From: a virus
Taxonomy: Duplodnaviria > Heunggongvirae > Uroviricota > Caudoviricetes
IMG/VR virus record: IMGVR_UViG_2606217110_000012
Location: 1 to 5,601 of that record
Direction: 5' to 3' (one strand)
DNA: 5,601 bases
Shown piece after piece: positions 1,670-3,368 of this stretch. The translations under genes were made by a program, and so were the position numbers. The notes under the pieces are model-generated. The model did no database searches. It was not told where the DNA came from and was given only the letters and a program-made list of their open reading frames with translations. Each line of letters begins with the position of its first letter. The stretch's first letter is position 1.

Positions 1670-1692
1670 AAAAAGACCGCCTGAGGGCAGCC
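1670..1692 (-). terminator. Intrinsic terminator downstream of the PP2C gene
   Basis: Minus-strand RNA GGCUGCC-CUCA-GGCGGUC: 7-bp stem (5 G-C pairs plus 2 G-U wobbles), 4-nt loop, then UUUUU (1674..1670). The same positions on the plus strand give C-A mismatches, so the hairpin is strand-biased to the minus strand. Confidence 0.55.
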
Positions 1693-1765
1693 TTTTTACA
1701 TTAAAATTAAGTTTTCTTTAACTATGTTGTATGTGAAATTAGCATTCCCTACTGAGTTTATACAA

Positions 1766-2509
1766 CTAATCTGACGTCACACGCACCATTATACTTACTA
1801 AAGAAAAGTCATCATCAGGTCCGGCTCTCTCTATACGACGCAAAATGCCATTAGAAAACTTCTGACTATTACTCATCGTATTTGATGTAAATCTGGGGCG
1901 TTTTTCCCAAACGTTATGAACCCCATCAGACATGATACACAGATGATATACCCCGTTAATACTAGGTAAATCTTTCCATGTGATAAAATCACAGTCGTAT
2001 TCCATATCAACATTTGAGGCTATAGCCGTCGTTAAGATATTTTTGCCCGGTTTATCCTTCAAATCTCTGGGTTTAAAAATATTCTGATCAATTAGCATCT
2101 GATGCCTGGTATCGTCCTTCGTCAATTGGTATGCTTTCTTCTCTCCAATGCAATACAAACGACAATCACCAATATGACCAATAATAATTCCGCTATCACA
2201 AACATAACAAAACGTAAGTGTAGTAGCAGCTTTATCGAACTCATCATTAACATCAGCTAACGACATAACCTTTCGCTTAACTTCATCAAATACATCCGGA
2301 ACTGTGTCAAAAGATAAGCTTGTCAATGCTGAAAGTTCAGCAATTGCCATTGATGAAGCCTGACTGGCACCAGTGTATGAACCTACACCATCAGCTACGG
2401 CAAATAAGATGCCATCCCCTACAATTTTGGGAGGAAGCAATGAATCTTCGTTGACCCTACCTGGTTCTTTTGGATACGAGAATGATGAAGTCGCTATCAG
2501 CTGAATCAT
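1766..2509 (-). CDS. PP2C-family (PPM) Ser/Thr protein phosphatase
   Basis: 247-aa ORF with PPM motifs: NEDS, FAVADGVGS (metal-binding DGxG), GDCRLY (GDSR-like), MSDGV, DDFSLV. Start ATG 2509..2507 overlaps the kinase stop TGA 2508..2506 (ATGA), preceded by SD AAGGAG. Confidence 0.88.
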   Translation of the reverse strand: MIQLIATSSFSYPKEPGRVNEDSLLPPKIVGDGILFAVADGVGSYTGASQASSMAIAELSALTSLSFDTVPDVFDEVKRKVMSLADVNDEFDKAATTLTFCYVCDSGIIIGHIGDCRLYCIGEKKAYQLTKDDTRHQMLIDQNIFKPRDLKDKPGKNILTTAIASNVDMEYDCDFITWKDLPSINGVYHLCIMSDGVHNVWEKRPRFTSNTMSNSQKFSNGILRRIERAGPDDDFSLVSIMVRVTSD

Positions 2510-3270
2510 GACTCACTCCTTAAAAAAGAATGCACAAAATCAAACGCCACATCATCTATTGTCTGATATCTATCATCTTTATCCATCCTGGTACACTTCG
2601 CTATGATAGGCTTTATTTTTTTATCATCTAAATTTAAGTCCTCAATTAACCGCCCCACCGCATAAACATCAGTCTTAACTGAATACTCGGCATTATATAA
2701 AATCTCGGGAGCCATATATCTTGTACTTCCCATACGGGTACCGATCTCGGTCAATTTAGTGGTATCCCCTTCGGGATTTGTATCTTTTACCAGACCAAAA
2801 TCAGACACCTTGTATGTTCCGTCGCTAAATCGCAAGACATTAAATGGTTTTATATCTCTGTGTAAATAGCCTTTCGCATGGATGTGAGCTACACCATCTA
2901 ATACCATTTTCACTATTGAAATTTTTTGATCTGTTGTAAGAAGGTTGTTCGTTATTTCGTGCTCAAGATCACATTCTGCTTTATCCATAATGAACCATGG
3001 ATTCTCGGCAAACAAATCGCACAAATAAATAGGAACAATATTGCTATGTACGCAATGTGATTGATACACGACCTCCCTTTTAAAACGCCTTCTAAACTGC
3101 TCTATTTGCGCCAAAAGCTCTGGTTTTTCGGGGGCTAAAACCTTTCTAGCATAATCCCCACATTCACCCTTGTTGAGGTTGTAAACCTTAACGTGTTCAA
3201 CAAAGCCAAATGCACCCCTTCCAATCAACTGAATTCGTTTTATAAAGTAATTACCGTGCTGTTCTTCCAT
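2506..3270 (-). CDS. Hanks-type (eukaryotic-like) Ser/Thr protein kinase, minimal catalytic domain
   Basis: Gly-rich loop IGRGAFGFV, beta3 lysine in YARKV, alphaC glutamate in KREV, catalytic loop HRDIKPFN, DFG in SDFGLVK, APE in YMAPE. Start assigned to ATG 3270 (SD GGTGAG, 4-nt spacer), not the track's TTG at 3345, which would read through the upstream terminator hairpin. 255 aa, no extra sensor domain. Confidence 0.88.
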   Translation of the reverse strand: MEEQHGNYFIKRIQLIGRGAFGFVEHVKVYNLNKGECGDYARKVLAPEKPELLAQIEQFRRRFKREVVYQSHCVHSNIVPIYLCDLFAENPWFIMDKAECDLEHEITNNLLTTDQKISIVKMVLDGVAHIHAKGYLHRDIKPFNVLRFSDGTYKVSDFGLVKDTNPEGDTTKLTEIGTRMGSTRYMAPEILYNAEYSVKTDVYAVGRLIEDLNLDDKKIKPIIAKCTRMDKDDRYQTIDDVAFDFVHSFLRSES

Positions 3271-3343
3271 TAAGCTCACCGACCTAAATTGTAAGAATAT
3301 CCATATCTTACAACTACAGATAAAAAGGTCCACAGAGTTAAGC

Positions 3344-3368
3344 AAAAAACCCGCATTTAAGCGGGTTT
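3344..3368 (-). terminator. Intrinsic terminator between the Q-position gene and the kinase (tR'-like position)
   Basis: Minus-strand RNA AAACCCGC-UUAAAU-GCGGGUUU followed by UUU: 8-bp stem with a 5-bp G-C core, then a 6-U run. No U-tract on the plus strand. Confidence 0.6.

Follow-up and report, generated by a model that had tools for sequence, protein, structure and literature searches.

Gene content of the locus

The window analyzed here is a 5,601-nt stretch of DNA from a lambdoid prophage of E. coli, of the ETEC E24377A type. Its features all lie on the minus strand, in the order DUF968 gene, RusA gene, Q, PR', T1, kinase gene, PP2C gene, T2, small open reading frame (ORF), methyltransferase gene and tRNAs, followed by the lysis genes (Table 1). 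Most of these are backbone. The tRNA is the first of a phage tRNA cluster that precedes the lysis genes, the methyltransferase gene is 88-92% identical in DNA to those of Stx2 phages and of prophages with an empty site, and in the latter the 65-aa ORF is the first backbone gene past the late terminator tR'. Between this ORF and Q lie the two genes considered here, which we refer to as the cassette.

Table 1. Features of the window, listed by position
Feature	Position	Strand	Basis or remarks
tRNA, CAT anticodon (backbone)	24..99	-	RefSeq: tRNA-Ile for the E24377A copy
N6/N4 DNA methyltransferase (backbone)	149..1198	-	PF01555 E=1e-44; same module as in Stx2 phages
Small ORF, 65 aa	1349..1546	-	phrog_331; "TrmB family" in some genomes' annotation
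T2, predicted intrinsic terminator, assigned to the cassette	1669..1697	-	RNA folding; conservation downstream of PP2C
PP2C-family Ser/Thr phosphatase, 247 aa	1766..2509	-	PF13672 E=2e-14; PstP 1txo E=5e-10
Hanks-type Ser/Thr protein kinase, 254 aa	2506..3270	-	PF00069 E=3e-33; phrog_2361 E=2e-98; PDB 4eqm E=1.7e-19
Cassette leader	3271..3343	-	Read from sequence
T1, predicted intrinsic terminator, putatively tR' in function	3344..3368	-	Terminator scan, RNA folding, conservation in relatives
Putative late promoter PR'	3379..3431	-	Kept in 9 Q82-like modules with or without cassette (alignment)
Q, late-gene antiterminator, Q82-like (backbone)	3415..4110	-	PF06323 E=5e-84; phrog_304; last ~100 nt AT-rich
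RusA Holliday-junction resolvase (backbone)	4101..4460	-	PF05866 E=5e-15
DUF968/HNH-like gene, nin-region type (backbone)	4473..5519	-	PF06147 E=7e-76; kept in cassette-less relatives

Both cassette proteins exceed the Pfam gathering scores for their families (115.9 bits against a cut-off of 31.7 for the kinase; 54 against 24 for the phosphatase), and the kinase carries the GRGAFG, HRDIKPFN, DFG and APE motifs; HRD, DFG and APE are also visible in its alignment to 4eqm. These features identify a Hanks-type kinase and a PP2C phosphatase. The kinase consists of the catalytic domain only, and Pfam detected no domain beyond Pkinase and PP2C in either protein. The PP2C protein also matched the Stp1/IreP model (E=1e-26), below that model's cut-off. 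A TTG at 3345 was considered as the kinase start and rejected in favor of the ATG at 3270, which gives the 254-aa form annotated by RefSeq. The PP2C start codon overlaps the kinase stop by 4 nt (ATGA), as it does in phiES15, Flotzy and ML35, which suggests translational coupling of the two genes. Searching the literature by the RefSeq accessions of both proteins returned no paper.

The leader is homologous to that of a second kinase-PP2C locus, L113. GGTGAG ahead of the kinase ATG is a candidate ribosome-binding site. An inverted repeat at 3313-3289 was evaluated as an RNA element and rejected, as its fold scores z = -1.3 relative to shuffled sequence and it is not kept in L113. In ML35, one G-C pair of this repeat is changed to U-G.

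Composition and mobility of the cassette

The cassette had been predicted to form a low-G+C island, on the strength of four hand-counted 60-nt samples (18 and 26 G+C inside it, 30 and 31 in the flanks). These counts are exact, and the island is real: G+C is 0.380 in 1693-3346 and 0.384 in 1670-3368, against 0.504 (1-1669) and 0.514 (3369-5601) in the flanks, and a maximum-likelihood fit of two change points gains 48 log-likelihood units. The difference extends to third codon positions, with GC3 of 0.335 for the PP2C gene and 0.365 for the kinase gene against 0.50-0.55 in five flanking genes. In the homologous 25.8-kb prophage locus of E24377A, the cassette is the single 1654-nt stretch lowest in G+C, and just 0.7% of windows of that length have a G+C of 0.385 or less.

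The edges of the island match the terminators imperfectly. The best change points fall at 1640 and 3516 (2-lnL support intervals 1491-1704 and 3500-3593), such that the AT-rich zone extends about 150 nt past the upstream terminator T1, covering the late-promoter region and the final 100 nt of Q. This region is equally AT-rich (0.33-0.38) in cassette-less relatives, and an AT-rich Q 3' end is found in all such Q82-like modules; the overshoot is therefore a backbone feature. The terminators had been proposed as the bounds of the cassette, and this holds for homology, which breaks at or next to the hairpins, and not for composition on the right side, where the edge lies beyond T1.

Homologs of the pair were identified in seven other contexts, and in none of them does the pair share the composition of its backbone, an outcome that would have counted against the island as originally proposed. 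Homologs only 40-63% identical have a G+C of 0.33-0.45 in backbones of 0.44-0.67 (Ferrimonas, Vibrio, phiES15, Flotzy, L113 and L116), and low G+C is kept even in homologs of only 40-50% identity whose hosts have 45-65% G+C. Low G+C is thus a maintained trait of the kinase-PP2C pair in every host examined, and not a sign of recent import alone. The drop that had been read as a signature of acquisition is large and significant, and that much of the reading stands; it does not by itself date the arrival. We give an even chance to the explanation that low G+C is a selected or intrinsic property of the family, reflecting for instance H-NS silencing of a toxic module or an AT bias of phage accessory genes, in which case this phage lineage could have carried the island for a long time. 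The homologs above show no simple amelioration toward host composition, as this explanation would have it. It is nonetheless compatible with horizontal mobility, for which there is independent evidence.

That evidence comes from empty sites and from the identities of cassette and flanks. In 235 E. coli genomes, the two flanks are at most about 0.9 kb apart, and the best matches, spanning ~0.8 kb, are free of cargo. In two such prophages (L009 and L011) the order is Q, PR', one terminator, small ORF and methylase gene. Aligned to the window, cassette-less relatives lose homology at 1678-1696, inside T2, and at 3379, 11 nt upstream of T1, placing both junctions near the predicted terminators. 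A third prophage, PSS-15, carries a MazF/PemK-family toxin gene in the same slot. The cassette itself was found in 50 of 5426 E. coli genomes, about 1% of complete genomes, including ETEC, EAEC 55989, APEC and urinary isolates; in 30 of 30 among the matches listed, the match also overlaps a Q annotation. The differing upstream flank of the STEC388 copy was considered as an alternative natural context and rejected, as it results from an IS1-mediated deletion.

Identity of the cassette is decoupled from that of its surroundings. The E24377A copy is 99.9% identical over the cassette while part of the flank reaches about 35% mismatches. In L113, which has a backbone of 55-65% G+C and holin and lysozyme genes downstream of the pair, the kinase and PP2C proteins are 94% and 82% identical to ours, against 49% for Q and 54% for RusA. 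Because of the empty sites and this decoupling, we conclude that the cassette is horizontally mobile, in agreement with the original prediction of a moron acquired and inserted as a unit.

Relatives of the pair recur at similar positions. It lies directly after Q in phiES15, after the spanin gene in Flotzy, and in L116 between an S-type holin gene and a lambda-type Q (PF03589, a Pfam family different from the PF06323 of the window's Q). Where it lies between Q and the lysis genes, the pair is preceded by Q of three different types, and in six lambdoid contexts it is downstream of Q and co-oriented with the late operon. A scan of species-representative genomes yielded only two close relatives, in Ferrimonas and Vibrio; the other matches were generic kinases of 25-36% identity, mostly from Desulfobacterales metagenome-assembled genomes. 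In neither Ferrimonas nor Vibrio is the pair behind a Q gene; the family as a whole therefore does not require coupling to Q. A megablast search of the cassette against 50,697 phage records gave no match, and the relatives there are at the protein level only.

The putative late promoter and the two predicted terminators

The window's Q is 63% identical in amino acids to a phage 434 protein that its annotators termed "Q82-like". A PDB sequence search with Q returned no relative, and so Pfam and the phage 434 annotation are the basis for calling it Q82-type. A Q82-type late unit has a Q-family gene immediately upstream, as is the case here, and a constitutive promoter with a -10-like pause or Q-loading element close to it. 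The putative PR' comprises a -35 element, TTGCAA (3431-3426), a 17-nt spacer and a -10 element, TACATT (3408-3403), with a predicted start near 3396. Downstream is a conserved TGATATTTTGCCG block (GATATT at 3390-3385), a candidate sigma-dependent pause or Q-loading element. The TTGCAA/17/TACATT arrangement and the TGATATTTTGCC block are kept across 9 Q82-like modules, as judged from sequence evidence only, and in these 9 the TGATAT block lies between the -35/-10 pair and a CCCGC..GCGGG-U terminator. The phiES15 equivalent of PR' was also detected by the promoter scan. Rfam contains no family matching the short PR'-T1 RNA or the leader; the sole overlapping match, to Leu_leader (3343-3443), is below threshold (E = 0.36, 22 bits against a gathering score of 50). 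The remaining Rfam matches are the tRNA and two sub-threshold ones elsewhere.

Both minus-strand hairpins with U runs that the original prediction placed at 1670-1692 and 3344-3368 are present. Such sites alone are not rare: we found 10 terminator-like sites against 4.9 +/- 2.2 in shuffled sequence, and the evidential weight of T1 and T2 lies in their location at homology breakpoints and in their conservation rather than in mere occurrence. T1 (AAACCCGC-TTAAAT-GCGGGTTT, then a U run) ranks first in the terminator scan. Its stem (3368-3347) has 8 bp, 5 of them G-C, followed by U6, and the RNA folds at -17.1 kcal/mol (z = -3.0). It spans about +29 to +53 from the predicted PR' start. A terminator shortly after the promoter, before the late genes begin, is typical of a Q82-type late unit, and T1 lies ~50 nt beyond the promoter. 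Equivalents with an identical stem and differing loops occupy the same position in cassette-less relatives and in phage 434, and an equivalent terminator is present in 9 of 9 aligned Q82-like modules. These comparisons indicate that T1 is functionally the phage's own late terminator, tR'. The assignment is ambiguous in one respect: L113 and phiES15 begin to diverge precisely where the T1 hairpin starts on its 5' side, so T1 may also travel with the cassette.

T2 (AGGCTGCC-CTCA-GGCGGTCT plus a U tract) has a stem at 1692-1673, extended by A/U pairs to 1697-1669, and a UUUUU tail. Its fold is strand-specific, at -20.5 kcal/mol on the minus strand (z = -4.7) and only -8.7 (z = -0.7) on the plus strand. 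A simple terminator scan did not list T2, probably as the A/U extension consumes the T tract. Behind the PP2C gene, T2 is kept in ML35, L113 and L116; all cells (100%) are paired, and 2 pairs differ on both sides. Across four variants it accompanies the kinase-PP2C pair into unrelated backbones with compensatory changes in its stem. We therefore assign T2, as a predicted factor-independent terminator, to the cassette. The tR' of empty-site prophages aligns with the 3' arm and T tract of T2 and with the sequence beyond them. The proposal that two terminators insulate the cassette is thus retained in part: T2 appears to be the cassette's own, and T1 is better described as the tR' of a Q82-type module than as a cassette-specific insulator.

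Comparison with known systems and proposed regulation

Morons are characterized by extra DNA, deviating composition, and their own promoter and terminator (the HK97/HK022 definition; lambda bor and lom are examples; PMC3594210). Like these lambdoid morons, the cassette is missing from the corresponding position in close relatives, lies between conserved backbone genes, differs in composition from the genes around it and has a predicted intrinsic terminator downstream. It differs in having two genes, predicted to be translationally coupled, rather than one, and in that no convincing promoter of its own was found. We consider it an ordinary, well-documented kind of moron, rather than a new kind of element, and the result as confirmatory rather than surprising.

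The layout resembles that of Shiga-toxin phages, in which Q, pR' and tR' are followed by methylase and tRNA genes, stx and the lysis genes (PMC6266700, PMC8065619). Both carry their cargo in the late operon, after Q/tR' and before the lysis genes, in the same orientation and with a predicted dependence on read-through by Q, and the methylase/tRNA module is 88-89% DNA-identical to that of Stx2 phages. In the window, however, the cargo is a kinase/phosphatase pair and no toxin, the Q allele is Q82-like, and the cassette lies directly after tR', upstream of the methylase gene, whereas stx follows the tRNAs. Phage 434 (OL657226) provides a further parallel. Its Q homolog is followed, 49-74 nt after the stop codon, by an annotated terminator, cargo genes and a second terminator, and the -35/-10 pair and TGATAT block are conserved; the cargo differs, consisting of small membrane-protein genes, and Q82-type activity is only predicted for the window's allele.

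With regard to function, the kinase domain matches PADLOC models of defense kinases (mad6, 1e-39; PD-T4-6, 1e-34; Stk2, 5e-28), matches that cover the generic catalytic core only (residues ~8-208) and thereby establish no defense role. Its score against NCBIfam MAD6, 66.7, is far under the cut-off of 460. The cassette thus shares with 933W Stk (which excludes HK97), PD-T4-6 and Stk2 a eukaryotic-like kinase associated with a phage or prophage. It is not a 933W-type stk, which would be a close homolog in the immunity region: identity is 25.7% over 68% of the protein, and the cassette kinase follows Q, whereas stk is annotated in the immunity region. To our knowledge, the 933W Stk, PD-T4-6 and Stk2 systems are single-gene and have no PP2C partner. 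Pairing of prophage-borne Hanks-type kinases with a PP2C phosphatase is found in KKP, a kinase-kinase-phosphatase module of Pf, P2, P4 and Mu prophages in which the kinase is the toxin and the phosphatase the antitoxin, and which acts in phage defense and lysogeny control (Guo et al. 2024, PMC11341870). In KKP a PP2C gene is followed by two kinase genes, all three filtered at 900-1300 bp, and the module includes CSD and FHA domains (PMC11341870). The cassette differs, with two genes in the order kinase-PP2C, encoding 254 and 247 aa, in a lambdoid late operon.

We think it likely that 1669-3378 is a mobile two-gene moron that brings its own T2, occupies a slot after PR'/tR' and is gated by Q, with the kinase and phosphatase acting as an effector pair. 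The gating by termination and antitermination, part of the original prediction, we infer from the order and conservation of PR', T1 and T2. Most likely, T1 and T2 block transcription in the lysogen and are read through by Q-modified polymerase after induction. Polymerase that initiates at PR' in a lysogen would terminate at T1, having made about 50 nt of RNA, and transcripts that leak through T1, or that start at a weak promoter in the leader, would end at T2, keeping the methylase, tRNA and lysis genes silent. Upon induction, Q would load on polymerase at PR' and render it resistant to termination at both T1 and T2, and the cassette would become the first part of the late operon to be transcribed, as stx is in Shiga-toxin phages. 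The kinase would be the toxic effector and PP2C the antidote or reset, with a role in defense against other phages or in host remodeling; the pair is probably a kinase-toxin/phosphatase-antidote module for defense or takeover.

Alternatively, the cassette could be an autonomous conversion or defense moron, expressed from its own promoter within the 73-nt leader in the repressed prophage, with T1 shielding it from PR', T2 ending its transcript and read-through by Q being incidental. PP2C would restrain the kinase until an infecting phage freed it, causing abortive infection or superinfection exclusion as for KKP, 933W Stk and Stk2. The classical definition of a moron, with promoter and terminator for expression in the repressed prophage (PMC3594210), the cassette-borne T2 and the precedent of KKP all favor this explanation, as does the Ferrimonas pair, which lies between a cI-like repressor and an integrase gene, away from any Q. 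Promoter-like sites are also found: a 10/12 match in L116 that includes a perfect TATAAT and lies about 50 nt ahead of the kinase gene, a 9/12 match in Vibrio, and in the window a weak candidate, TGGACC (3332-3327)/16 nt/TAAGAT (3310-3305), that is conserved in L113. This candidate, at 8/12, is however the only one between T1 and the kinase ATG, where the promoter scan gave no sigma-70 site of at least 9/12. Moreover, promoter-like match counts equal the shuffled expectation in every locus scanned, and such scans therefore do not decide between presence and absence of a cassette promoter. The co-orientation of the pair with the late operon, downstream of Q, in six lambdoid contexts also argues against autonomy, which we regard as the less probable reading, albeit a serious one. 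Under Q gating, lysogen expression, which a defense role needs, is left unexplained, because of the missing site of at least 9/12 between T1 and the kinase ATG.

It is very improbable that the cassette is ancestral and that its empty relatives arose by deletion between T1 and T2. These two are similar, each a G+C-rich hairpin with a T run behind it, and the one terminator present at empty sites has a 5' side that aligns with T1 and a 3' side that aligns with T2, which is what such a deletion would leave. Against this, genomes with closely spaced flanks outnumber those with the cassette (235 vs 50), unrelated cargo occupies the same slot elsewhere, the composition of the cassette is foreign and its identity is decoupled from that of the flanks. 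Individual losses by this route are possible.

Returning to the Q-gated moron, we speculate further, with considerable doubt, that the pair is a minimal two-gene relative of the kinase/phosphatase toxin-antitoxin defense modules, specialized for the slot between Q and lysis genes. Its dose would be set by leakage through tR' in the lysogen and by Q antitermination after induction. It would exclude competing phages in the lysogen and also phosphorylate host targets during late development of the phage itself, and the role of its persistent AT-richness would be xenogeneic silencing of a toxic gene.

Cargo exchange in lambdoid phages is cleanly illustrated by this natural locus. The slot after the late terminator is empty, holds a MazF-type toxin gene or holds a kinase/phosphatase pair, and the junctions of exchange fall at or beside terminator hairpins, in the late-operon region where Stx phages carry stx. 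If the pair is truly a Q-gated defense or takeover module, lambdoid phages would join those covered by the KKP paradigm, and the pair would provide a tractable system in E. coli.

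Genomic setting and base composition

Every gene in the window lies on the minus strand, and we list them in order of transcription.

Features of the window
Feature	Coordinates	Strand	Remark
DUF968/HNH-like gene	5519-4473	minus	first in transcription order
RusA	4460-4101	minus	second in transcription order
Antiterminator Q	4110-3415	minus	Pfam PF06323
Hanks-type Ser/Thr kinase	3270-2506	minus	cassette gene 1
PP2C phosphatase	2509-1766	minus	cassette gene 2
65-aa ORF	1546-1349	minus	after PP2C
N6/N4 DNA methyltransferase	1198-149	minus	after 65-aa ORF
tRNA	99-24	minus	last in transcription order

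The counterpart of the window is a lambdoid prophage adjoining potB in ETEC E24377A, where the same gene order continues into further tRNAs and then holin and endolysin genes; this places the kinase/PP2C cassette after Q and ahead of the late (lysis) genes, in the stretch where Stx phages carry stx. At the DNA level, the methylase/tRNA module of Stx phages is 88-89% identical to that of the window. ARAGORN calls the tRNA Met (anticodon CAT), whereas RefSeq (E24377A copy) and the phiP27 annotation give tRNA-Ile; one possible identity is a lysidine-modified tRNA-Ile2 of ileZ type, as found in Stx phages.

The four hand counts of G+C behind the original prediction of a low-GC island (18, 26, 30 and 31) were reproduced exactly, and G+C falls to 0.380 at 1693-3346, the two flanks being at 0.504 and 0.514. 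The cassette genes have a GC3 of 0.335 and 0.365 versus 0.50-0.55 in flanking genes, a two-change-point likelihood fit of G+C gains 48 log units, and the cassette is the single lowest-G+C stretch of 1654 nt in the 25.8-kb E24377A locus. The drop is thus confirmed, but its right limit is not the predicted 3368: the change point is best placed at 3516 (support 3500-3593). The roughly 150 nt of AT-rich sequence beyond the upstream hairpin take in the late-promoter region together with the final 100 nt of Q. Cassette-free relatives are just as AT-rich there (0.33-0.38), which makes this overshoot a backbone feature. An AT-rich 3' end occurs in all Q82-like Q genes examined, with or without cargo, the probable cause being the late promoter, with its upstream elements, that is embedded there. 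In the window (3415-3516) and its equivalents (loci L003, L006-L011, L092 and L113), the last ~100 nt of Q have a G+C of 0.33-0.48, compared with 0.48-0.63 for the rest.

Homologous pairs, 40-63% identical, are low-G+C islands in each context found: Ferrimonas (0.38-0.42 versus 0.55-0.67 in the surroundings), phiES15 (0.34-0.42 versus 0.53-0.63), Flotzy (0.40-0.45 versus 0.50-0.58), Vibrio (0.35-0.40 versus 0.44-0.48) and locus L116 (0.33-0.38 versus ~0.50). Because simple amelioration should erase a donor signature at such divergence, AT-richness is either a maintained family trait or the result of the pair circulating continuously in a pool of AT-rich phage genes, and not just evidence of recent arrival. 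The nearest non-enterobacterial pair, in Ferrimonas pelagia (L012, 2945-8137; 51% and 45% amino acid identity), stands out in the same way (G+C ~0.40, backbone ~0.60), although it lies at the prophage end opposite the Q slot, with a cI-like HTH/S24 repressor on one side and a lambda-type integrase on the other.

Empty sites, alternative cargo and spread

Alignment to cassette-free relatives places the insertion boundaries within about 10-25 nt of those predicted. In Stx2 phages that share the methylase module but have a different Q allele, the match to the window starts at position 1 and stops at 1678-1683, and phages with the same Q type that lack the methylase match 3379-5601. Searching E. 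coli genomes with a chimeric query of the two joined flanks, we found the flanks at most about 0.9 kb apart in 235 genomes (~0.8 kb in the best matches). AH19B041 and UTAK-6 read Q, promoter, one terminator, small ORF, methylase; they are 86-92% identical to both flanks, and homology ends at 1678-1696 and 3379. PSS-15 instead carries a PemK/MazF-family toxin gene after Q and the putative late promoter PR'. These empty sites and this alternative cargo in one slot therefore mark it as a cargo hot spot. The PSS-15 toxin gene (NZ_AP027709.1, 2900-3700, equivalent to window 1684-3378) has no annotated antitoxin alongside; a near-identical tR'-type hairpin (ATCCCGCC..GAGCGGGTTTTTTG) flanks it on both sides, together with one extra terminator, which suggests that cargo is swapped by recombination at terminator hairpins.

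Of 5426 complete E. coli genomes, 50 carry the cassette; it comes in two alleles (at least 99% and ~96% identical), and its match overlaps the Q annotation in all 30 records listed. The window and E24377A differ at 2 positions over the cassette and adjoining 3' part of Q (about 1601-3800), versus 140/400 (about 35%) at 4401-4800, the RusA/DUF968 junction region; this sharp mosaic boundary puts the breakpoint in or near Q, not at the upstream hairpin. IS1 has struck the cassette twice (STEC388 and NZ_CM185152.1), in one case with loss of everything upstream of the kinase, Q included, and in the other interrupting the kinase gene. In ML35 (~96% allele) a deletion (window 436-1617) removes the small ORF and all but the C-terminal third of the methyltransferase, while the downstream hairpin and about 50 nt beyond it are kept; VR50, 55989 and others probably share this deletion.

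The bounding hairpins

Both predicted boundary hairpins are real and favour the minus strand. The upstream one, T1 (3368-3347 plus U6), ranks first among terminator-like sites in the window scan (fold z = -3.0). The downstream one, T2, has a stem at 1692-1673 that A/U pairs lengthen to 1697-1669; its folding energy is -20.5 kcal/mol, and z is -4.7 on the minus strand versus -0.7 on the plus strand. Sites resembling terminators are common enough in the window (10 observed, 4.9 +/- 2.2 by chance) that the weight of T1 and T2 comes from comparative evidence.

We aligned nine Q82-like modules (window, ML35, vB_EcoS-689R5, two empty sites, the MazF site, 434, phiES15 and Flotzy). All share a TTGCAA -35 (window 3431-3426), a 17-nt spacer followed by a TAyATT-type -10 (3408-3403), a conserved TGATATTTTGCC block, which, from lambdoid late promoters, we take to be a candidate sigma-dependent pause and Q-loading element, and a CCCGC-loop-GCGGG hairpin with a U run, in which stems are constant and loops variable; the phiES15 stem covaries (CCCAC/GTGGG). 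In the curated record of phage 434, Q is labelled 'Q82-like' and an annotated terminator lies 49-74 nt beyond its stop codon, followed by cargo genes and a second terminator; in the window, T1 lies 47-71 nt beyond that of Q. On this alignment T1 is, functionally, the predicted phage late terminator tR', and a transcript from PR' stopping there would be about 50 nt long. Near-identity between L113, an IMG/VR locus that carries the gene pair, and phiES15 stops exactly at the 5' base of the T1 hairpin, and thus T1 may be mobile with the cassette as well; its evolutionary assignment is ambiguous.

T2 follows the cassette. In L113 the kinase and PP2C are 94% and 82% identical to the window's, Q and RusA only 49% and 54%; the backbone is 55-65% G+C, and holin and lysozyme genes, not the methylase module, lie downstream. 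In L116 the pair (63% and 59% identical) sits between a lambda-type Q, of a different Pfam family (PF03589) from the window's (PF06323), and an S-type holin. An AGGCTnnn-4 nt-nnnGGyCT hairpin with a T run follows PP2C in the window, ML35, L113 and L116; all 32/32 cells of the stem alignment are paired and two pairs have changed on both sides, which across four sequences is supportive, not decisive. Directly 3' of PP2C there is likewise a hairpin-T site in Flotzy, phiES15 and the Vibrio locus. By these alignments T2 is the cassette's own predicted terminator. Its 3' arm, T tract and TTTTTATGCyCGAAAA...GTTAAACGCGCTGGTGG align to tR' and downstream sequence of empty-site prophages, and the cassette-backbone junction therefore lies inside T2. 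Plausibly, the cassette would have entered by recombination, with the conserved PR' block as one crossover site and hairpin/T-run microhomology as the other.

Expression and possible function

Control of late genes and stx through Q, pR' and tR' is familiar lambdoid biology. Given this established system (PMC6266700) and the anatomy of the window, Q-gated transcription of the cassette is most likely. In a lysogen, T1 would halt PR' transcripts and T2 would halt leak-through or leader-initiated transcripts ahead of the methylase, tRNA and lysis genes. Once the prophage is induced, polymerase modified by Q would pass both, making the cassette the first late message. A promoter scan of 3343-3271 found no site of 9/12 or better that could serve as the cassette's own promoter. 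An 8/12 promoter candidate in the window leader is conserved in L113, L116 has a 10/12 promoter-like site, and the Ferrimonas and Vibrio pairs have no Q ahead of them.

The predicted PR'-T1 transcript (3344-3396, minus strand; ~50 nt, expected to be constitutive in lysogens) resembles the short 6S-type RNA of lambda. Equivalent short RNAs are 6S in lambda and the regulatory StxS in Stx phages; Rfam returned no family at its gathering score over the PR'-T1 region. The kinase leader (3289-3313, minus strand) holds a 9-bp inverted repeat, TTGTAAGAt...TTCTTACAA, 20 nt upstream of the kinase ATG. In ML35 one G-C pair becomes U-G, a change that preserves pairing in the sense RNA alone; L113 does not conserve the repeat, which folds no better than shuffles.

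The kinase consists of a catalytic domain alone, in which the Gly loop and the HRDIKPxN, DFG and APE motifs are present; its core matches the defence-kinase models mad6, PD-T4-6 and Stk2 through the generic domain only. The phosphatase matches PstP/Stp1-type enzymes. An ATGA overlap of the two genes, found in the window and in E. coli, phiES15 and Flotzy homologues, suggests co-expression at a fixed ratio. The PP2C aligns to positions 273-520 of the 565-position profile phrog_5650; some phage relatives may therefore carry an additional domain, perhaps a kinase, fused at the N terminus. Among published mechanisms the closest is that of KKP, a prophage kinase-kinase-PP2C toxin-antitoxin system acting in defence against lytic phages and lysogeny control (PMC11341870). 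The window module differs in having two genes, in reversed order, without a CSD or FHA domain. The 933W-type Stk is only 25.7% identical to the window kinase and is located in the immunity region. Our best guess, held with modest confidence, is a kinase toxin and phosphatase antidote serving in defence or host takeover.

Recounts, likelihood fit and folding bear out a low-GC cassette bounded by predicted terminators, and empty sites, alternative cargo, breakpoints and the discordant identities in L113 support its horizontal acquisition as a moron. It is a well-delimited moron occupying the cargo slot of a lambdoid late operon, new as a member of a kind already known and of moderate-to-low surprise, and it is well suited to experiments on the kinase/phosphatase modules of E. 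coli prophages.
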